The position numbers and the translations under genes were made by a program. The notes beneath the pieces were generated by a model. The model did not search any database. It worked only from the letters and a program-made list of their open reading frames with translations, and had not been told where the DNA came from. A stretch of 38,350 nt of DNA from Chiloscyllium plagiosum (taxonomy: Eukaryota): NCBI RefSeq assembly GCF_004010195.1, contig NC_057754.1, positions 11,662,008-11,700,357 of the forward strand, given 5' to 3'. This document shows, in pieces, positions 981 to 32,100 of the stretch (within the stretch, counting starts at the first letter, position 1; each line of letters starts with the position of its first letter).

Positions 981-2306
981 TAAGACCACCAGATAGTCAT
1001 TGAGATGTACAGCACAGAAACAGACCTTTCAGTCCGACTCATCCATGCTGATCAGGTGTCCTAAATAAATCTAGTCCTATTGGCCAGCATTTGGCCCATA
1101 TCCCTGTAAATTCTCTTATACCCATCCAGATGCTTTTTAAAATATAATTGTACAGGCCTCAATTTTCTCTGGCAACTCACTTCATACATGGAGCTGCATG
1201 AAAAAGTTGCCTCTTAGGTCCTTTTCTAAATTCTTCCCCTCTCACCTTAAATCTATGCCCTCTAGTTTTGGACTTGCCCACCCCAGGGAAAAGACCCTGT
1301 CTATTTACCCTATCCATGCCACTCGTGACTTTATGAACCTCTATAAGGTCACCCCTCAGCCTTTGATGCTCCAGAGAATATAGTCCCATTCTGTTCAGCC
1401 TCTCCAAATAGCTCAAACTCTCCAACCCTAGCAACATCCGTGTAAATCTTTTCTGGAACCCTTTCAAGTCTTGAGCATCCTTCCTGTGGCAGGGAGACCA
1501 GAATTACATGCAATATTCCAGAAGTGGCCGAACAGAGCTGCAACATGACTTTTTAACTTCTATACTCAATACACTGACCAATAAGTGCAAGCATACCAAA
1601 CTTCATCTTCACTATCCTACCTACCTGTGACTCCACTTTCAAGGAACTAAGAACCTGCAGTCCAAGGTCTCTTGTTCAGCAACACTCCCCAGAATGTGAC
1701 AATTAAGTGTATAAGTCCTGCCCTGATCTGCCTTGCCAAAATGCAACACCTCACACTTATCTAAATTAAACCCCGTCAACCGTGCATTGGCCCATCTGAT
1801 CAAAATCCCGTTGTAATCTGAGGTAACCTTTTTTGCTGTCTACTACACCTCCACTTTTGGTTTCATCTGCAACTTAGTGACCATACCATCTACGTTCACA
1901 TCCAAGTCACTTGTATAAATGATGAGAAGCAGTGAACCCAGCACTGATCCTTGTGGCGTACCACTAGTCATAGACTTCCACTCTGAAAGGCAACCCTCCA
2001 CCACCACCCTCTGTCTTCTACCTTCGAGTCAGCTCTATGTCCAAATGGCTAGTTCTCTCTGTATTTCATGTGATTTAACCTTGCTAACAAATCTACAATG
2101 AGGAACCTTGTCAAATGCCTTACTGAAGTCCACATGGATTATGCAATGCTCTGCCCTCATTAATCCTCTTCGTTACTTCCTTTAAAAAAAGACTCAATTA
2201 AATTTGAGATGTGATTTCCCATGCACAAAGCCTTGCTAACTATCCCTAACCAATCCTTGCCTTTCCAAATGTGGTACATCCTGTCCCTTGGGATTCCCTC
2301 CAACTT

Positions 2307-2509
2307 TGAGAGAAAGTGAGGGCTGCAGATGCTGGAGATCAGAGCTGAAAATGTGTTGCTGGAAAAGCGCAGCAGGTCAGGCAGCATCCAAGGAACAGGA
2401 GAATCGACGTTTCCTTCCTGAAGAAGGGCTTATGCCCGAAACGTCGATTCTCCTGTTCCTTGGATGCTGCCTGACCTGCTGCGCTTTTCCAGCAACACAT
2501 TTTCAGCTC
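2307..2509. mobile_element. Penelope-like element terminal fragment as a fold-back palindrome, inserted in CR1
   Basis: Perfect 72-bp inverted arms 2342-2413 and 2438-2509; 14-bp TSD attccctccaactt at 2293-2306 and 2510-2523. Confidence 0.85.
2416..2447 (+). ncRNA. Minimal type I hammerhead ribozyme motif (PLE-associated)
   Basis: CTGAAGA (2418-2424), extra A, stem II GGGC-ttat-GCCC, GAAAC, GTC cleavage triplet (2443-2445); palindromic ACGT in place of stem III. Confidence 0.7.
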
Positions 2510-2638
2510 ATTCCCTCCAACTTGCCCACCATTGATATCAGATTCACCGGTCTATAGTTCCCTGGTTTGTCCTTCTACCATTCTTAAACAGTGGCACCAT
2601 GTTAGCCAACCTCCAGTCTTCCAGCACCTCACCTGTGA

Positions 2639-4052: not shown

Positions 4053-4240
4053 ACAAGGAGAAAGTGAAGACCATCTACATCTACCCATGATCCGCCTTTC
4101 CACCTACCTTCACCCCCAACTCCATTATTTATCTCTCAGCCACCTTGCCTTTTCACATTCCTGATGAAGGGCTTATACCTGACACATTGACTTTCCTGCT
4201 TCTTGGATGTTGCCTGACCTGTTGTGCTTTTCCAGTGCCA
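4053..4240 (+). mobile_element. PLE terminal fragment with degenerate hammerhead
   Basis: cctgatgaagggcttatacctgacac at about 4160-4185, followed by the same tail as 2446-2495; short inverted end ggagaaagtgaagac at about 4056. Confidence 0.7.
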
Positions 4241-11489: not shown

Positions 11490-11765
11490 CCGTCCCTGAA
11501 GGACATTCATGAACTGGTTGGGTTTTTATGACAGCTGAAAATGTGTTGCTGGAAAAGTGCAGCAGGTCAGGCAGTGTCCAAGGAGCAGGAGAATCAACGT
11601 TTTGGGCTCATGCCCAAAACGTCGATTCTCCTGCTCCTTGGACGCTGCCTGACCTGCTGCACTTTTCTAGCAACACATTTTCAGCTCTAATCTCCAGCAG
11701 CTGCAGTCCTCACTTTCTCCTAGGGGCTTTTATGACAATCCAGTAACTTTTCATGGTCACTATTT
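11490..11765 (-). mobile_element. Deu-core SINE fragment interrupted by a PLE
   Basis: Reverse complement gtgaccatgaaaag...ttgtcataaaa...atgtccttcaggga matches the copy at 23570-23635. Confidence 0.55.
11534..11727. mobile_element. PLE fold-back palindrome insertion
   Basis: About 75-bp inverted arms 11533-11607 and 11612-11686 around a 4-nt loop (tcat); TSD ttttatgaca at 11524-11533 and 11728-11737. Confidence 0.85.
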
Positions 11766-11861: not shown

Positions 11862-12110
11862 AGAATCACGGAGGCACATTCACGAGCAAGAATTCCAAAC
11901 AAACATCCCATCAAGATCTGAATGTGAAAACCATTGGATATTCTGTTTTTTTTTGTGGGGGGAAAAATTACAAACATCAGTGTGACTGGAAATGGACAAA
12001 GACACATCCACAGTTGAGTTCTGGCGAACTGTCTGTGGCCAGGTCTTGAACCAGTTCCACAGCCTGAATAATATCACACTGTGGAGAGAGACTGTATCCC
12101 TGTCTTGTGT

Positions 12111-12764
12111 ATGAGTGAGGAGTCAGTTGCTCAAATGGAGGGACATGAGGATACCTGCACTACAGAGAAACCATGGAAGTGTGGGGACTGTGGGAAGGGA
12201 TTTAAACACCCATACCTCTTGGAAACTCATCAACGCAGTCACACTGGGGAGAGGCCGTACACCTGCTCTGTTTGTGGGAAAGGATTCACCCGGTCATCTG
12301 ACTTTCTGAAACATGAACGGACTCACACTGGAGAGAGGCTGTTCATCTGCCCTGAATGTGGGAAAGGCTTCAGGGACTCATCCAGCCTGCAAAAACACAA
12401 GCAAATTCACACTGGGGAGAGGCCATACACCTGCTCAGAGTGTGGGAAAGGATTCATTCGATCAGCCCACCTGCTGACACACCAGCGAGTTCACACTGGA
12501 GAGAGGCCATTCCCCTGTTCAGAGTGTGGCAAAGCGTTCTCTCAGCTATCCAACCTCAGGACACACCAACTGGTTCACACTGATGAGAGACCTTTCAAAT
12601 GTTTGCACTGTGAGAAAAGCTTTAAACGCACATGTGACTTGCTGATACACCAACAGATTCACACTGGGGAGAGGCCATTCCCCTGCTCTGTTTGTGGGAA
12701 ACGATTTATTCATTCAAAAAACCATCTGAGACACCAGCGAATACATACTAGTGAGAAGTTTTGA
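12111..12764 (+). CDS. Tandem C2H2 zinc-finger protein, 7 fingers, no KRAB/BTB/SCAN domain visible
   Basis: Seven CxxC-x12-HxxxH repeats with TGERP-type linkers in an open frame; first in-frame ATG at 12111 (alternative 12135); TGA ending at 12764. Confidence 0.88.
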   Translation: MSEESVAQMEGHEDTCTTEKPWKCGDCGKGFKHPYLLETHQRSHTGERPYTCSVCGKGFTRSSDFLKHERTHTGERLFICPECGKGFRDSSSLQKHKQIHTGERPYTCSECGKGFIRSAHLLTHQRVHTGERPFPCSECGKAFSQLSNLRTHQLVHTDERPFKCLHCEKSFKRTCDLLIHQQIHTGERPFPCSVCGKRFIHSKNHLRHQRIHTSEKF

Positions 12765-15830: not shown

Positions 15831-16070
15831 TTGAAACAAGATCTCAAACCTAAAGTGCATTGTCTGACCTGAGAGACCAGTGAGCCTGTCGTCAGTGGTG
15901 GGCAAGTTGTTGGAGGGAATCCTAAGGGTCAGGATGTACACGTATTTGCAAAGGCAAAGACTGATTAGGGATGGGCAACATGGCCTTGTGCGTGGGAAAT
16001 CATGTCTCACAAACTTGATTGAGTTTTTTTGAAGAAGTAACAAAGAGGATTGCTGAGGGCAGAGCGGTAG

Positions 16071-16694
16071 ATAGAGTCATAGAGATGTACAGCAAGGAAA
16101 CAGACCCTTTGATCCAACCCATCCATGCCCGACCAGATATCCCAACCCAATACAGTCTTACCTGCCAGCACTCGGCCCATATCCCTCCAAACCCTTCCTA
16201 TTCATATACCTATCCAAATGCCTCTTAAATGTTGCAATTGTACCAGCCTCCACCACTTCCTCTGGCAGCACATTCCATACACGTACCACTCTCTGTGTGA
16301 AAAAGTTGCCCCTCAGGTTTCTTTTATATCTTTCCCCTCTCCCCCTAAACCTATGCCCTCTAGTTCTGGACTCCCCAACCCCAGGTAAACACATCCTTAC
16401 AGAGATACACAATGTCCCATGGTATATTGATCTGTTTAATAAACAGATTTTGTACATTAGATCTGTGTAATCACTGTTTGCCTATTTACCTTATCCATAC
16501 CCCTCATAATTTTTTGAACCTCTATAAGGTCACCCCTCAGCCTCTGACGCTCCAGGGAAAACAGCCCCAGCCTGTTCAGCCTCTCCCTATAGCTCAAATC
16601 CTTCAACCCTGGCAGCATCCTTGTAAATCTTTTCTGAACCCTTTCAAGTTTCACAACATCCTTCCGATAGGAAGGAGAACAGGATTGCATGCTA
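16071..16694 (-). mobile_element. 5'-truncated CR1 3' end nested in the opposite orientation
   Basis: KLERVQKRFTRMLPGLKDLSYRERL...RTRGHRF..FFTQRVV; atagagtc repeat tail at 16070-16085; splits the host AVD..YMDFSKAF motif. Confidence 0.88.
16387..16475 (+). repeat. Exact 89-bp copy of 14769-14857 inserted into a CR1
   Basis: Base-for-base identical by inspection (aaacacatcc...gtaatcact). Confidence 0.95.
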
Positions 16695-17769
16695 TATTCT
16701 ATATGGACTTCAGTAAGGCATTCAAGGTTCCCCATGGGAGACTGATTAGCAAGGTTACAGCTCATGGGATACAGGGAGAACCAGCCATTTGGATACAGAA
16801 CTGGCTCAAAGGTAGAAGACAAAGGTGGTGGTGGAGTGTTGTTTTTCAGACTGGAGGCCTGTTACCAGTGGAGTGCCACAAGGATCAGTGCTGGGTCCTC
16901 TACTTTTTGTCATTTTCATAAATGATTTGGATGCAAGAATAAGAGGTGCAGTTAGTAAGTTTGCAGATGACACCAAAATTGGAGGTGTAGTGGACAGTGA
17001 AGAGGGCTACCTTAGATTACAAACATGATCTTGACCGGATGGGCCAATAGGTTGAGAAGTGGCAGATGGAGTCTAATTCAGATAAATGCGAGGTGCTGCA
17101 TTTTGGGAAAGCAAATCGGAAAGACGTTGTGAAACTTGAAAGGGTTCAGAAAAGACTTACAAGAATGTTGCCAGGGTTGGAGGATTTGAGCTATAAAGAA
17201 AGGCTGAACAAGCTGCGTCAGAGGCTGAGGGGTGTCCTAATAGAGGTTTACAAAATTATGAGGAGCATGGATAAGATAAATACACAAAGTCTTTTCCCTG
17301 GGGTCGGAGAGCCCAGAATTCGAGGGCATAGGTTTAGGGTGAGAGGGGAAAGATATAAAAGAAGCCTAAGGGGCAACCTTTTCACACAGAGGGTGGTACA
17401 TGTATAGAATGAGCTAACAGAGGAAGTGGTGGAGGCTGGTACAATTGCAACATGCAAGAGGCATTTGAATGGGTATATGTATAGGAAGGGTTTGGAGGGA
17501 TATGGACTGGGTGCTGGCAGGTGGGACTAGATTGGGTTGGGATATCTGGTCGGCCTGGGTTGGACCGAAGGGTCTGTTTCTATGCTGTACATCTCCATGA
17601 CTCTGTCATTTTATACTGATCTTGGGGCAGCGACTTGAAATAAAATCTGGGATTTACATATTATCAATTGAAACCTGCATCTCCATTCTTACAGATTAAA
17701 GACTTAATAACAATCTAGGTTTGTTCAATATATTTGGATATGTTTTATAACCGTTTTACTTATAAATTC

Positions 17770-20442: not shown

Positions 20443-20836
20443 TTGAGTTGTCTGTCCCCTTTCCCCATGGGGATTAGACATTAAGATCTATTAAAACCAC
20501 CCTAAAAAGAAAATAGCTTTACAAGAGCCACTCGTAAAAATAAATGGCAGGTTGGATATTCAGTGATTGAGTGGAAAGTGTGTCTTGGGACTACAATATG
20601 GGTCTCATGGATGCAAGGAGCTCTGGAGGTAGGAGAGGAACCGGAGAAAAATGCATGTCCAGGGCTCAGACAAGGTGGAACTTTAGAGACAGTTTCAGAG
20701 AAAGGAGAGACATGGAAGAGGCAGGTGATTGGATTGTCTCAAACTGATTGACAAAGGAGCTCCATGAGCTCCATATAAGATGAAGGAGGTACAATGGGCA
20801 AACACTACAAAAGAAAGTGAAGACATTAGATAGCCT

Positions 20837-20960
20837 GACGAAGGGCTCATGTCTGAAACGTTGACCCTCCTGCTCCTTGGATGCTGCCTGACCTGCTGCG
20901 CTTTTCCAGCAACACATTTTCAGCTCTGATCTCCAGCATCTGCAGTCCTCACTTTCTCCC
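20837..20960 (+). mobile_element. PLE terminal insertion starting at the hammerhead core
   Basis: 14-bp TSD acattagatagcct at 20823-20836 and 20961-20974; CTGACGA-A-GGGC-tcat-GTCT-GAAAC-GTT at 20835-20862. Confidence 0.85.
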
Positions 20961-21304: not shown

Positions 21305-22258
21305 TCACTCATGAGAACGCTGGTGTTTCAGCAGGCTGGACTTCACAGTGAATCCCTTCCCACACTCAGTGCAGGTGTATGGTCTCTCCCCAGTGTGAGA
21401 TCGCTGATGTGCAGTGAGTTGGGTTGACCACTTGAACCCACTCCCACAGTGAGAGCATCTGAACGGTCTCTCGACACTATGAACACGTTGATGTGACATC
21501 AGGTCCCCAGATCGTTTAAAGCATTTCTCACAGTCTGGGCATTCAAAAGGTCTCTCCTCTGTGTGAAGTTGTTGGTGTTTCAGCAGGTTGGATTTCTGAG
21601 CAAATCCCTTCCCACACTCAGTGCAGGTGTATGGCCTCTCCCCAGTGTGAGATCGCTGGTGTACAGTGAGTTGGAATGATCGCCTGAACCCAGTCCCACA
21701 GTGAGAGCACCTAAATGGTCTCTCATCAGTGTGAACACGTTGATGTAACATCAGGTCCCCAGATCTTTTATAGCACGTCCCACAGTCTGGGCATTTAAAA
21801 GGTCTCTCCTCTGTGTGAACTTGCTGGTGTTTCAGGAGGGTAGATTTTCGAGCGAATGTCTTTCCACATGCTGAGCAGCTGAATGGTCTCTCCCCAGTGT
21901 GGATCCGCTGGTGTTCGATGAGATCAGATGATTGCTTGAATCTAGACCCGCAGCGAGAACAACTGAAGGGTCTCTCACCAGTGTGAACACGTTGATGCAA
22001 CTTCAGTGCGCCAGAACTTTTATAGCACTTTCCACATTCTGAACATTTAAACAATCTCTCCTCAGTGTGAACTTGCTGGTGTTTCAGCAGGGTGGATGAT
22101 GGAGGGAATCCTTTCCCACACTGGGAACAGACGAATTGCCTTTCCCCATTGTGACTGTATTTATGTTCTGACAAGGCAGATGACCTGCTGAAGTCCTGTC
22201 CACACATACAACACGTGGACAGTTTCTCCCCACTGTGAATGGTGCTTTTCCCTTCCAT
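21305..22258 (-). CDS. Tandem C2H2 zinc-finger protein, 11 fingers, no effector domain visible
   Basis: ATG at 22258 (aacATGG); 11 C2H2 repeats with TGERP/TEERP linkers in an open frame; upstream acceptor ttcacag ending at 22366, with stops in all frames between it and the ATG. Confidence 0.92.
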
Positions 22259-22424
22259 GTTCAAGATCCAATAATATTAAGGCTGCAATCAACTGGCAAC
22301 TCTCTCAGACTCTGGTGATGTTTGATTTTAAGTCTCCCCACTACAAATTCTCCTCTTCAAATACCCTGTGAAACTGGTTGTAAATGAAAAAGGGGAGAGA
22401 GAGAAAAGAAAAACAAAAAGATAA

Positions 22425-24530: not shown

Positions 24531-24618
24531 CAACCTGGGCGATAACATTCAGGGATCTATGCACATGGATACCACAACCTGGGCGATAACATTCAGGGAT
24601 CTATGCACATGGATACCA
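24531..24618. repeat. Perfect 44-bp tandem duplication inside CR1 ORF2
   Basis: caacctgggcgataacattcagggatctatgcacatggatacca at 24531-24574 and 24575-24618. Confidence 0.95.
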
Positions 24619-25063: not shown

Positions 25064-25382
25064 ATTAGATTAGATTAGATTACTTACAGTGTGGAAACAG
25101 GCCTTTTTGCCCAACAAGTCCACACCGACCCGCCGAAGCGTATACCACCCAGACCCATACTCCTACGTTTACCCCTTCACCTAACACTACGGGCAATTTA
25201 GCATTCACCTAACCTGCACATTTTTGGATTGTGGGAGGAAACCGGAGCACCCGGAGGAAACCCACGCAGACACGGGGAGAATGTGCAAACTCCACACAGA
25301 GAGTCGCCTTGAGGCGGGAGTTGAACCCGGGTCTCTGGCGCTGTGAGGCAGCAGTGCTAACCACTGTGCCACCGTGCCGCCC
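25064..25382 (-). mobile_element. Full-length, CpG-rich HE1-type V-SINE inserted in CR1 RT
   Basis: Head GGGCGGCACGGTGGCACAGTGGTTAGCAC (A box), GGTTCAACTCC (B box), V-core GTGTGGAGTTTGCACATTCTCCCCGTG, LINE-like tail ending in AATCT repeats. Confidence 0.92.
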
Positions 25383-28304
25383 ACGGAATGAATCAAACAC
25401 TTTACTGAAATCCACATACACCAGATCAACTGCTTTACCCGCATCCACCTGTTTGGTCACCCTCTCAAAGAACTCAATACAGTTTGTGAGGCAAGACCTC
25501 CCCTTCACAAAACCGTGCTGACTATATCTAATCAAATTATTCCTTTCCAGATTATTATATATCCTATCTCTTATAATCCTTTCCAATAATTTATCCACAA
25601 CAGACGTAAGGCTCACTGATCTACAATTACCAGGGTTGTCTCTACTCCCCTTCTTCAACAAAGGGACATTTGCTATACTCTAGTCTTCTGGCACTATTCC
25701 AGTAGACAATGACAACATAAAGCCAAAGTCTCTGCACTCTCCTCCCTAGCTTCCCAGAGAATCAGAGGATAAATCCCATCCAGCCCAGAAGATTTACCTA
25801 ATTTCACACTTTCCAGAATTGCTAACACCTCCTCCTAATGAACCTTAATCCCATCTCGTCTAATAGCCTATATCTCAGTATTCTCCTCAACAACATTGTC
25901 TTTTTCCTGTGTGAATACTGATGAAAAATATTCATTTAGTGCCTCTCCTATCCCTTCTGACTCTAAGCACAACTTCCCACAACTTCCTTGACTGGCCCTA
26001 ATCTTATTCGAGTTATTCTTTTATTCTTTACATCTCTCGAAAAAGCTTTAGGGTTTTCCTTGATCATCCGACATGCCAAAGACTTCCCATGCCCCTCCTA
26101 GCTCTTCTTAGCTCTCTCTTTAGGTCTGTCCTGGCTAACCTGTAAATCTCACATGCCCTAACTGAGCCTTCAACCTCACCTTTACAGAAACCTCCTTCTT
26201 CCTCTAGACAAAAGACAAACCTCTTTAGTAAATCACGGCTCCCTCACTCAACCACTTCTTCCCTGCCTGACAGGTACATATTTATCAAGGACACGCAGTA
26301 GCTATTCCTTGAACAATCTCCACATTTCAGTTGTGCCCATCCCCTGCAGTTTATTTCCCCATCTTATGTATCCTAAATCTTGGCTAAACATCTCATAATT
26401 GCCTTTCCCCCAGCATTAACTCTTGTGCTGCGGTATATACCTATCCCTTTCTATCGCTCAAGTAAACGTAACCAAATTGTGGTCACTACCACGAAAGCGC
26501 TCGCCTACCTCCAAATCTAACACCTGGCCTGGTCCATTACCTAGTACCAAATCCAATGCGACTTTGCCTCTTGTTGGCCTGTCTACATACTGTGTCAGGA
26601 AACCCTCCTGCGCACATTGGACAAAAACTGACCCATCTAAAGTACTCGAAATATAGCATTTCCTGTCAATATTTGTAAAATTAAAGTCCACTATAATAAC
26701 TACCCTGTTACTTTCGCTCCTATCCAGAATAATCTTTGTAATCCTTTCCTCTACATCTCTGGAACTTTTCGGAGGCCCATAGAAAACTCCCAATAGCATT
26801 ACCTCTCCTTTCCTGTTTCTAACCGCAGCCCACACTACCTCAGTGGACAAGTCCTGAAAAGTCCCTTCTGCTACGGTAACATTGTCCTTGACTAACTGTG
26901 CCACACCTCCCCCACTTTTACCACCTCCCCTGATCTTACTGAAACATTTAAACCCCTGAATCTGCAACAACCATTCCTGTTCCTGCTCTAAGCATGTCTC
27001 CCAAATGGCCACAACATTGAAGTCCCAGATACCAATCCATGCTGCAAGTTCACCCACCTTATTCCAGATGCTCCTGGCATTGAAGTAGACACACTTCAAA
27101 CCATGTTCCTGCCTGCCGGTACACTTTTGCAACCTTGAAACCATATTCATGACCGCACTACACTCAACTTCCTGTAGACTGGAGCTACAATTCAGGTTCC
27201 CAACCCCCTGCTCAATCAGTTTAAACCCTCCTAAAGAGCATTAGCATACTTCCCCTCCAGGATATTGGTACTCCTCTGGTTCAGGTGTAGACCATCCCAT
27301 TTGTAGAGGTCCCACCTACCCCCAGAATGACCCCTAATTATTCAAGTATCTGATTCCCTCCCTCCTGCACCATCCCTATAGCCACTTGTTCAACTCCTCT
27401 CTTTCCCTATTCCTCGCATCGCTAGCACGTGGCACGGGTAACGAGCAAGAGATAACAACTCTGCTTATTACAGCTCTAAGCTTCCACCATATCTCCCTGA
27501 ATTTCTTCCTTAAATCCCCGATCCTTTTTCCTACCTATATCTTTAGTACCTATGTGTACCATGACTTGGGGCTGCTCCCCCTCTCCCTCAAGGATCCCCA
27601 AAACATGATCTGAGACATTACGGACCCTGGCACCTGGGAGGCAACACATCAATCAAGAGTCTCTCTTGCTCCCATAGAATCCATCTGCGCCCCCAACTAC
27701 ATCCGCCTGTCCCCAATGACCAATGCTCTGCTCCTCTCCTCCTTCCCTTCTGAGCAAAATGGACAGATTCTGTGCCAGACACCTGCACCCATGGCTTACC
27801 CCTGCGAAGTCGTTTCTCCCCACCCTCAACAGTATCCAAAACGGTATACTTGTTATTGAGGGGAATGACCACAGGGGATTCCTGCACTGTCTGCCTGTTC
27901 CCTTTCCGACCCTCAACTGCAACCCATCTACCTGTACTGATGTGTGACTACCTCCCTGTAACTCCTCTCAATTATCCAAACTTCATCCAGCTCGAGCTCC
28001 AGTTCCCTAATGCGGTTTCCAAGGAGCTGCAGTTGGGTGCACTCCTCGCAGATGAAATCAGCAGGCTCACTCGTGGTGACCCTTACCTCCCACATCCGAC
28101 AGGAGGAGCATTCAACTGCCCTACCATCCATTCCCACTGTTCTGAATGCCCAAGCAGACTATATTTTAAAAAAACTAGAAAAAAAATTGGCACTCAGAAC
28201 CTTTGTTTTTGGTTACAGGAGGATACCGAAGTAGTGCTTCAGGTAAAGTAACCGCCCAAATATATTACCTCACTTACTCAACTGTCCCGTGTCCACTCCT
28301 GCTC

Positions 28305-29199: not shown

Positions 29200-32100
29200 A
29201 GAGGTTTAACTGAGGGAATATGAGTGGCTCGGGGCCAACTTATCGAACCAAAAAGCTAATAATCTCTGGATTACAACCTGCGCAAGAAACTGGCACAAAA
29301 TCAATGAGATTAAAGAGAGAAATGTATGCAAAGATTGGTGTGGAAAAAAAGGTTCAAGTTAATGAGACATTGGTGTCAGTACTGGGGAAGGAAGAGCTGT
29401 TCCAATGGATTTTGCATCATCAGAATAACACTGGGGCCAGAGTTCTGGTGAATCACATAACTAGAGTCTGTGGATATGGCTTTAAATCATGTTGGGTGGG
29501 TTCAGATGTGGTGAAAATCATAGAAAAAGTTAAGGGAGTGTGCGATTGGGGTGGACTCAGCACAGGTTAAAGTTTCCAGAACAGACTGCAGGACAGAAAG
29601 TATGGAAAAGATTAAGAATCTAATTTCAGACACAGCAGATATGGGGACAACAATGAGAAGAGGGGCAGTCAATGCAGATTTGAGGGTGTTGTATCTAAAA
29701 TGCATGAAATAGATGACGCAAGGTAAATGAGCTCATAGCACAATTTGAAAGTTGTAGTTACAGACTCGTGGGCAGAGATGTGGCTGCAAGGGGATCAAAG
29801 CTGGGAACATAATATCCAAGGATAGACATCCTATCAAAACGTCAAGCAGATAGGCACAGGTGTCAGGGTTTCTTGTTAGTAAGAAAGAAAACTAAGTTGA
29901 CAGCAAGGAGTGAGATAGAGTCAGAAGGCATAAAATCTGTGTGTTGTGGAAATGGAAAGGATAAACAACCCTGATGGAAGTTGAATACAGGCCTCCTATC
30001 AGTTGTCAGGATGTGGGGAAGAAAATAAATTAGGAGTTTAAAAAAATGTAAGAAAGGCACTATTGCAATAATCATAGGGGACTTCAAATGCAGGTGAACT
30101 AGGAAAATCAAGCTGGCAGATCTCAAGAAAACTCACTCATGGAATGTCTATGAAATGGTTGTTCTGGAGAAGTTTGTATTAGAGGTGACTGAGGAACAGG
30201 CGTTTAGTGATGTGGCATGAGGAGACTTGATTTGGGAGCTTAAGATGAAGGAACCCCTTGCAGGCAGTGACCATAATATAATAGAGTTCACCCTGTAGTC
30301 TGAAAGGGAAAAGATTAAATCAGATGTAATGGGATTGCAATGGAGTATAGGTAACTACAAAGGTACATGGAAGGAGCTGATCAGAGTTGACTGGAAGAGG
30401 ATTCGCATGTGTGGCGCTGGAAAAGCACAGCAAGTCAGGCAGCATCCAAGGAGCAGGAGAATCGACTTTTCGGGCATGAGCCCTTCATCAGGAAATATGG
30501 AAGACTGGAAGAGGAGCCTATCAAGGAAAATGGTGGAACAGCAGTGGCAGAAGTTTCTCAGGGTAATTGAGGAGACACCTCAAGGAAAAAGAAATGTCCT
30601 TAGTGGAGGATGAGACAACTATGGCTAACAAGGGAAGTCAGGGAGAGCATAAAAGCAAAACAAAAAGCACACAATGCAGTGAAGATTAGTGGAAGCCAAA
30701 AGATTGGCAGGTCTTTAAAAATATAACTAAAAAAGCAATAGGCAGGGAGAAGATGAAATCTGAGAGGAAGCTAGCTAATAATACAAGATTGTAAGTGTTT
30801 TTTAAAATATATCTAAATTCTAAGAGAGATGCAAGAGTGGACTTTGCCCAGCAGTCCAATGAGGCTGAAGAAGTCGTAACAGGGAGCAAAGAAATGCTGG
30901 AGGAACCGAACAGGTGCTTTGGATCAGTTTTCTCAGTGGAAGATATACTAGACCTTCAAGACAGTCATGGAGCAGAGGTGAATGGAGTGCCATCACTCAG
31001 AAGAAGGTGCTAGGGAAGCAGAAAGGTCTGAAGGTGGATTGATCACCCAGACTAGATGGACTACACACCAGAGCTCTAAAGGAGACAGTGGAGGCATTGG
31101 TAGTGATCTTTCAGAATCACTGGAGTAAGGGAGGGAGGCAGGACTTAGGAAACCACAGGCCAGGTAGCCTGATGGCAGTCATTAGGAAGACTTTAGAGTC
31201 CATTATTAAGGATAAGATTAAAGAGCACTTGAAACTGCATGGTAAAATAGAGCAAAGTCAGCACAGCATTGTCAAGGGTAAAGAGCAAGTAAGACAAATG
31301 AGAGCCAGTGGACGTGATCTATTTGGATTTCCAGAAGGCCTTTGACAAGGTACTGCATAGGAGGCTACTAAATAAGACAGGAATCCATGGTGTTAGAGGC
31401 AAGGCAGAGGCATGGATACAGGATTGTTGAGGAAGTGGGAAGCTGCAAAAGGCAAGAGTGCAAAGAAGTGCCAGATGGAATACAATGTGGGAAAGTGTGT
31501 GGTCATGCACTTTGTTGGAAACTAAAGAGATTTTGACTATTTTCTAAATAGGGAAGGGCTTCAGAAATCTGAGGCATAAAGGTCAGGTGAATTGGCCATG
31601 CTAAATTGCCCATAGTGTTAGGTGCATTAGTCAGAGGGAAATATGTCTGGGTGGGTTACTCTCCAGAGGGTCAGTTTAGACTTGTTGGGCCAAAGGGAAT
31701 CTAATCTAATCCTAGTTCAGGATTCTGAAGGTTAACATGCAGGTTCAACTGGCAGTTAGGAAGACAAATGCCATTTTAACATTTATCTCAAGGGGCCTAG
31801 AAAACAAGATCAGAGATGTATTACTGAAGCTGTATCAGCGGTAATGAGACTGCTGCACAGGAGGCTGCTGAGTAAGATTTGGGCGGATGGTGTTAGAGGC
31901 AAGGTACCAGCATGGATAGAAGCTTGGCTGTCCAGCAGAAAGCAGAGAGTGCAGATAAAAGGGTCCTTCTTAGGATGGCACCAGTAGGATGGCTCCACAA
32001 CGACCTAAATGAAGGAACTGAAGGCATTCTGGCTAAGTTTGCAGATGATTCAAAAATAGGTAGAAGGACAGGTAGTATTAAGGAGGCTCAGAGGCTGCAG

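Follow-up and report, generated by a model that had tools for sequence, protein, structure and literature searches.

A hammerhead-bearing palindromic insertion in the Chiloscyllium plagiosum genome as a likely truncated end of a Penelope-like element

RESULTS

Genomic context and structure of the insertion

The window analyzed here, that is, the whole 38,350-nt stretch of Chiloscyllium plagiosum DNA (contig NC_057754.1, positions 11,662,008 to 11,700,357), contains nine ORFs that were compared with Pfam. Two of them encode C2H2 zinc-finger arrays, one (25212-25679, minus strand) matches RVT_1, two match APE-type endonucleases and four returned no match; GIY-YIG was not matched by any of the nine. 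The zinc-finger arrays are convergent, at 12072-12764 (plus strand, 230 aa) and 21305-22276 (minus strand, 323 aa), and the second has a 252-bp higher-order repeat. The insertion under study, here termed copy A, interrupts a decayed LINE, which we take to be CR1-like, and is made up of the following features:

2180..2636, minus strand: host site, a decayed RT-region remnant of an APE-type LINE, split by the insertion (flank alignments)
2293..2306: left TSD, 14 bp, with a single counterpart in the LINE paralog without insertion (15874-16030)
2307..2341, minus strand: PLE-type tail of 35 nt, carried by the inverted copy and not by the forward one (aligns with the tails at 11.7 and 20.9 kb)
2342..2413, minus strand: inverted, 5'-truncated copy of the element end (perfect-repeat search, copy alignment)
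2414..2417, plus strand: head-to-head junction, GTTTC/CTTC-CTGA (sequence)
2418..2445, plus strand: putative minimal type I hammerhead core (motif and features given in PMC4209133; without an Rfam match)
2438..2509, plus strand: right arm, a tailless forward copy of the element end (repeat search, copy alignment)
2510..2523: right TSD, 14 bp, same as the left one (direct-repeat search)

The flanks of copy A align to LINE paralogs at 15.9, 5.7, 25.5 and 37.8 kb. In one of these the match is contiguous (left flank at 16030-15909, right flank at 15920-15874, minus strand), and the TSD sequence is found there once, with 3 extra nucleotides. The direct repeat of copy A is a true target duplication and, given a LINE paralog with a single TSD sequence, copy A must have inserted after the decay of the host LINE had begun.

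The longest perfect inverted repeat between 2250 and 2560 pairs 72 of 72 bp (2342-2413 with 2438-2509) around a 24-nt loop (2414-2437), and it lies within an insert of 203 bp (2307-2509) bounded by the 14-bp direct repeats. An earlier note on this DNA had described a TSD-flanked palindromic element of 203 bp; its 72-bp arms and 14-bp TSD stand, but the palindrome covers 168 of the 203 bp, and the 35 nt at 2307-2341 have no partner. As RNA, the insert has an MFE of -158.6 kcal/mol (z = -19.1), a stability matched by none of 200 shuffled sequences. There are no mismatches among the 86 paired sites of arms and TSD, which sets divergence at 3.4% or less (95%); the insertion is young, though a very recent age is not required. 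Gene conversion, considered as a cause of the perfect arms, is unneeded, because the T at 2456 that both arms share is a common variant, present at 31-51% of depth in contigs of related organisms.

The inverted arm ends at the 3' foot of the hammerhead stem II, so that GAAACGUC is kept and the rest of the hammerhead is absent from it, and the junction that follows is a short local repeat (TTCC-TTCC) and a remnant of the 5' strand of stem I. On the minus strand, 2307-2387 forms an ATG-led frame of 27 codons that runs uninterrupted across arm and tail and is also open in a second palindrome described below; it may represent the start of a parent ORF, as in other PLEs.

The hammerhead motif

The motif consists of CUGAAGA (2418-2424), an extra A (2425), stem II (2426-2429 with 2434-2437; 4 bp, UUAU loop) and GAAAC-GUC (2438-2445), with the canonical cut predicted after 2445. 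The signatures of minimal hammerhead ribozymes (min-HHRs) found in 2418-2445 are the core boxes, the extra base between positions 9 and 10.1, the G10.1-C11.1 pair and a palindromic 15.2-16.2. The spacer between the arms had been credited with supplying the core, and CUGAAGA-A and stem II do lie in the loop, whereas it is the right arm that begins with GAAACGUC (8 bp). Likewise, what had been called an intact hammerhead core has its catalytic nucleotides intact without being an intact ribozyme: stem I amounts to 2 bp (C2417-G2446 and U2416-A2447, followed by U.U), short of the 4-5 bp of helix I by which min-HHRs are recognized. A change of T2448 to A would, together with an upstream ATTC such as that of copy B of the unit described next, give a stem I of 4 bp. 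The search with hammerhead models proposed in the earlier note came out negative, since the Rfam covariance models at E<=10 returned no hammerhead among 12 matches in 2000-2800, nor in the one match in 2408-2470; the matches were generic hairpins, all under the gathering score. The hammerhead is thus identified by its motif and by published features of minimal hammerheads.

Five copies of a ~130-nt unit

Copy A is built from two pieces of a unit of ~130 nt (hammerhead, ~64 nt and a tail of ~35 nt) that is present at five sites in the window, at 2.3, 4.1, 11.5, 20.8 and 30.4 kb. The right arm and loop of copy A represent the unit in forward orientation, and the left arm with its 35 nt represents it inverted. 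The other four copies are:

4057..4240, plus strand: copy B, older and decayed (copy alignment)
11534..11723: copy C, a second palindromic insertion, 190 bp (repeat search, copy alignment)
20837..20960, plus strand: copy D, a single forward copy with tail, 124 bp (copy alignment, 14-bp TSD)
30402..30502, minus strand: copy E, a single tailless copy, 101 bp (copy alignment, 13-bp TSD)

TSDs of 13-14 bp flank four of the five copies, with inserts of 203, 190, 124 and 101 bp, whereas none was found for copy B (4057-4240). The 5' junction of the unit is different in every one of the five, two of which (A and C) are palindromes. A tail is present on one end only of each palindrome (35 nt in A, 38 nt in C) and on copy D; copies E and B are tailless. 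Copy D joins its target at the front of the hammerhead through a CCT microhomology, copy E starts 11 nt upstream of CUGAUGA, and copy B has an upstream part that is longer and rich in pyrimidines, together with a short inverted remnant of the tail end (4057-4071).

Copy C has a 14-bp TSD with one mismatch (11520-11533 and 11724-11737) and 74-bp arms with three mismatches, the center of the palindrome falling in the stem II loop and the tail on the right arm. The ends of the short arms of A and C agree within 2 nt; center and tail side differ, so that the arm bearing the loop is tailless in A and tailed in C. In copy C, CUGANGA is gone and G12 is changed to A in both arms. Its arms differ at 3 of 74 sites and have two uncommon changes in common (G12 to A and a CpG-type change), one of which makes up 3-9% of depth in contigs of related organisms; either the hammerhead of the source RNA was already dead or the arms were homogenized after insertion.

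The pattern CTGANGAAGGGC matches four times in the window, against 0.81 expected, and none of 100 shuffled sequences reaches four; all matches lie in copies of the unit. Core, stem II and GAAACGUC are all kept in copy A alone of the five. Copies B to E carry core-breaking changes without compensatory ones, a pattern that would be expected of neutral decay.

A 13-mer one mismatch away from the antisense end of the tail was observed just upstream of copies D (20812-20824) and B (4059-4071). Beside copy D it lies outside the TSD apart from an overlap of 2 nt, an arrangement suggestive of insertion into an older tail remnant. Allowing at most one mismatch, the 13-mer has five matches in the window, all at unit copies, against 0.05 expected by chance, and its position beside D and B may reflect a preference of the endonuclease for tail sequence.

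The unit in related organisms

In a word comparison with sequencing runs, 20 of 24 runs shared part of the stretch, the best of them 0.49 of its words; with less than half of the words present in any run, these represent relatives or partial carriers. Records were aligned to 2050-2800 (751 bp) at 88% likeness from three DNA-type contig runs (X1, X5 and X14) and one RNA run (X22). The contig runs yielded 82,775, 112,464 and 92,545 aligned records, respectively, for a 751-bp stretch that also includes other repeats, and no read of the RNA run aligned, from ~6% of that run. Summed depth in the loop bin reached 5-10 million, whereas pieces that are apparently single-copy had 8-30; such depth is no copy number. 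A rough estimate of the order of 10^5 copies of the unit agrees in order both with this depth and with one copy per 8 kb of window.

Loose ends of alignments accumulate at three places. Among the 18 rows listed of 1952, those before 2310 number 1138 in X1 and 372 in X14, in line with a pile of family ends at this point of the tail, those before 2337 number 200 in X5, and those before 2415 number 455, 447 and 413 in X1, X5 and X14, the last pile being partly forced by the reference, in which no further unit sequence exists upstream of 2415. Flanks at these piles are unlike one another (agreement 0.34-0.41). From the piles at 2310 and 2337 it follows that the unit has two 3' ends ~30 nt apart, with and without the tail. 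A further pile behind 2344 points to a sister subfamily.

Joints within contigs reveal the head-to-head arrangement directly. All 15 listed of 808 connect a point in the inverted arm (2336-2385) with one in the forward copy (2415-2457), which 14 of these 15 enter at 2415-2437. Each listed joint is found in 1-7 contigs per run; the sides of the joints are shorter than 30 nt, and 10 of the 15 have unknown letters between them. The count leaves out the exact 2413/2414 junction, which aligns without a joint, and contigs break in repeats. A few joints reach a depth of 430-910, as compared with 8-30 for apparently single-copy pieces, and these junctions may be multicopy. Head-to-head junctions are hence common and varied in the related organisms; an empty-site allele was absent among the 15 joints listed of 808.

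The T2448A variant accounts for 38% of the depth in X1 but for 3% and 0.2% in X5 and X14, respectively, a lineage-specific turnover of subfamilies at a site relevant to the ribozyme. Outside these runs, a metagenome scan with a 30-nt core pattern found no loci, and the 17 loci found with a 20-nt pattern, all of which match just 20-26 nt of the unit, were taken as chance.

DISCUSSION

Affinity with Penelope-like elements

Copy A is likely to be a piece of a Penelope-like element (PLE). Four structural traits of EN+ PLEs are found in it, namely a hammerhead in the terminal repeat, an inverted copy, a tail, and a TSD combined with 5' truncation, and an adjacent inverted, 5'-truncated copy in head-to-head arrangement recurs in copies A and C and in 15 of the 15 joints listed of 808. 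The earlier reading of the locus as a young, non-coding PLE derivative is supported, in the form of a fragment from the element end that carries a motif of the minimal type I hammerhead.

As described in Craig et al. 2021 (PMC8557442), PLE insertions are strongly 5'-truncated, often carry an inverted truncated copy at their 5' end and have a 30-40-bp tail at one end, which is ascribed there to EN-mediated resolution; strong 5' truncation is presented as the rule also in PMC8969392. The rotifer element Pen2a_Av combines an inverted pLTR with a 31-bp tail and a 9-bp TSD, and palindromes at inverted rotifer PLE junctions are ascribed to self-priming in the same account (PMC3846280, Arkhipova et al. 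2013). The EN+ PLE insertion units of these sources (PMC3846280; PMC8557442) resemble copy A in being head to head, within a TSD and with a hammerhead in the repeat, and their tails of 30-40 bp at one end compare with the 35 nt of A and the 38 nt of C. Copy A departs from them in having no ORF between the repeats, of which just the last 96 and 107 nt are present; TSDs are also longer here (13-14 bp, as compared with the 8-10 bp of the rotifer cases), and the copies number, roughly, 10^5.

The Poseidon PLE of Anolis (PAc) offers a further parallel, as far as its published description goes. In vitro, its protein cuts and extends both strands, reverse transcription starts at two adjacent sites whose spacing equals the tail, and the main substrate is uncleaved RNA, the hammerhead being cut only with the protein (PMC11167929, Frangieh et al. 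2024). Compared by description only, the unit shares with PAc two adjacent 3' ends a tail length apart, copies that reach 5' of the hammerhead cut site (as an uncleaved template implies) and a possible reading frame of 27 codons (ATG at the equivalent of 2387) that begins close to the hammerhead and continues across the tail. Unlike those of PAc, the target sites of the unit show no clear AT richness.

Minimal hammerheads were described in PMC4209133 (Cervera and De la Pena 2014) as mostly solo motifs of truncated PLEs, with pairs on opposite strands 100-700 bp apart. The metazoan PLE min-HHRs set out in that paper share with copy A CUGANGA, the extra base, G10.1-C11.1, a palindromic CG at 15.2-16.2 and the lack of a stem III loop, whereas stem II has 4 bp in copy A as compared with 7-8 bp in the Schistosoma families, and stem I has 2 bp. 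The account of host species drawn on from that source makes no mention of sharks. Penelope is present in the whale shark, in which CR1 is dominant according to the summary in PMC8455134.

Two other classes were weighed. Non-LTR retrozymes (Li et al. 2026, bioRxiv 10.64898/2026.07.22.740005), which in that description are reported from one chondrichthyan genome, are likewise non-coding, hammerhead-bearing and related to pLTRs, but they form head-to-tail arrays with at least two complete hammerheads, whereas copy A is head to head with one; none of the seven tandem arrays of the window overlaps a unit copy. The second class is that of MITEs.

MITEs are short, non-coding, hairpin-forming and TSD-flanked elements, and copy A is all of these. 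The unit differs from them in an inverted repeat that is non-terminal on one side, in copies that are non-uniform and mostly single-armed and in a 5' truncation of the retroelement type; with an inverted repeat offset by 35 nt on the left and inserts of 203, 190, 124 and 101 bp with different ends, a MITE was rejected.

Searches for coding capacity and for a SINE-type head were negative. The window contains no long copy of the unit in which a direct partial-tandem order (pLTR-ORF-pLTR) could be read. PLE protein motifs had no match in six frames of the 38-kb window, and the 40-aa tail frame of copy C, compared with longer proteins, gave five candidates, none at E<=0.01. A 35-aa frame had one match (E 3.4e-4) among 1.84 billion protein representatives, to a tandem-repeat protein, and this was set aside as due to chance. 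ARAGORN, used to look for a tRNA-like head, found no genes in the window, a weak test for decayed heads.

Copy A is real yet ordinary for its class, and its pattern is already described for PLEs. As a single locus, one among very many PLE end fragments, it is of little weight; it is useful as a young and clear-cut case for studying the formation of inverted PLE structures. On a shark-specific unit, or on twin priming in PLEs, no paper was found in the open-licence literature.

Origin of the palindrome

With good confidence, we regard copy A as a dead-on-arrival insertion of an endonuclease-bearing PLE, cut down to its hammerhead-bearing 3' end, in which the palindrome is a by-product of insertion. 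The palindrome was most likely made at insertion rather than inherited from a self-copying family, because the 5' junctions in the window, the fold points and tail sides of A and C, and the joints in relatives all vary. The self-propagating palindromic family envisaged in the earlier note is unsupported in view of the same facts (five different 5' junctions in five window copies, the differences between A and C, and many distinct joints in relatives); unique junctions, which that note had named as evidence against such a family, are what the window copies have.

It seems reasonable to postulate the following course of events. The PLE endonuclease would make a staggered cut of ~14 nt, and both DNA 3' ends would prime reverse transcription, one at the end of the tail and the other ~35 nt upstream. 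Synthesis of each cDNA would end prematurely at the hammerhead, in one case at the foot of stem II and in the other just past CUGANGA. A microhomology of a few bases would then serve to join the two 3' ends, and the gaps would be filled. The template would be uncleaved RNA, since both arms of copy A reach 5' of the cut site at 2445. Microhomology is seen at other junctions as well, in copy C through the complementarity of stem II GGGC/GCCC and in copy D through the CCT shared with the target.

The most serious alternative, although an unlikely one, concerns the template, which would be a short non-coding RNA of ~130 nt headed by the hammerhead; SINE-like and parasitic on a PLE, it would be initiated on its own, immediately in front of that motif. 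The starts of copies A, D and E, within 4, ~0 and 11 nt of CUGANGA, and the piles of loose ends at 2415 in all three contig runs (rows listed) speak in its favor, as does the failure to find a PLE ORF in the window frames or in protein searches with the tail frame. Copy B, however, reaches at least 85 nt further upstream; the inverted arms stop at stem II (at its 3' foot in A and in its loop in C), which fits stalling of the RT on structure; strong 5' truncation is in any case usual for PLEs, in the accounts of PMC8557442 and PMC8969392; and ARAGORN detected no tRNA-like head in the window. A short template can be compatible with formation of the palindrome at insertion. Somewhat less probable again is the full scenario in which such a hammerhead-headed RNA parasitizes a PLE and the palindromes preserve traces of two-ended priming in vivo, with cDNAs joined where the RT stalls on the hammerhead; if it were true, ~10^5 copies would make the second-strand step of PLE transposition statistically testable.

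About as doubtful as that scenario is the proposal that a single cDNA (or an antisense template) folded back and primed itself at the hammerhead hairpin, with asymmetric resolution by the endonuclease leaving the tail on one side. Self-priming of this kind has been proposed for palindromic junctions of rotifer PLEs (PMC3846280), and the ascription of the tail to EN-mediated resolution (PMC8557442) is congruent with it. Copy C, moreover, is centered exactly on the stem II loop and has two uncommon variants in both arms, yet shared variants are also explained by one source RNA copied twice or by later conversion from arm to arm. The loop of copy A continues into the tailless arm, and a single cDNA that is primed at the target and folds back would need a further step to give the opposite arm its tail. 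The placement of the loop in A as compared with C therefore bears on the choice between two target-primed cDNAs and one self-primed cDNA. Two primers account for both palindromes; the cases number just two, however, and a fold-back resolved later may also apply.

That the palindrome is itself mobile, as a MITE-like element or RNA-hairpin parasite spreading with fixed ends, is very improbable. The perfect arms with a TSD, the palindromic state of two of the five window copies and the few joints at depth 430-910 in relatives would fit such an element, but all five window junctions differ, three of the five copies are non-palindromic, the inverted repeat is non-terminal on one side, and the joints, though many, are each tiny next to a body depth of millions. 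A helix of 72 bp is, furthermore, a poor template for an RT. A few palindromes may nonetheless have been re-mobilized as units.

Fate of the hammerhead motif

The proposal of the earlier note that the long hairpin sequesters GAAACGUC and blocks folding of the ribozyme agrees with the folding predictions, in which 2438-2445 is unpaired with a probability of at most 0.7%. Free folding gives -166.1 kcal/mol, against -146.1 kcal/mol when a hammerhead-compatible fold is forced, a penalty of 20 kcal/mol, and in a growing transcript the blocking helix is the most stable structure once 2445 (GUC) has been made. The block would hence be permanent rather than a switch, the full palindrome RNA is not predicted to cleave itself, and the ribozyme motif of copy A would be a passenger, unable to fold in a read-through transcript. 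The conformational switch suggested in the same note is unsupported, because stem I is limited to 2 bp, the penalty on the hammerhead fold is 20 kcal/mol and the core is paired as soon as GUC is transcribed.

A functional switch that would gate cleavage by the hammerhead, in a transcript of the host or of the element, is scarcely credible: the catalytic nucleotides are intact and the long helix could in principle, in a forced fold, replace an extended stem I, but beyond the energetic cost min-HHRs are described as inactive as monomers and barely active as dimers (PMC4209133), the anole hammerhead needed protein in the assays of PMC11167929, and copy A, the opposite (minus) strand transcript of which is without ribozyme, is a young insertion within a decayed LINE.

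As far as folding predictions go, copy A would have no function beyond that of a possible source of dsRNA if transcribed. Copies of the unit scatter long perfect hairpins in a zinc-finger gene region, and these could likewise be a source of dsRNA if they are transcribed.

Two further repeat structures were observed in the window. The LINE 3' ends at 16119-16389 and 17293-17563 are inverted relative to each other (271 nt, 88% complementary, 903 nt between them) and probably represent a twin-primed or tail-to-tail LINE insertion, and a LINE remnant harbors a perfect 44-bp tandem duplication at 24531-24618.
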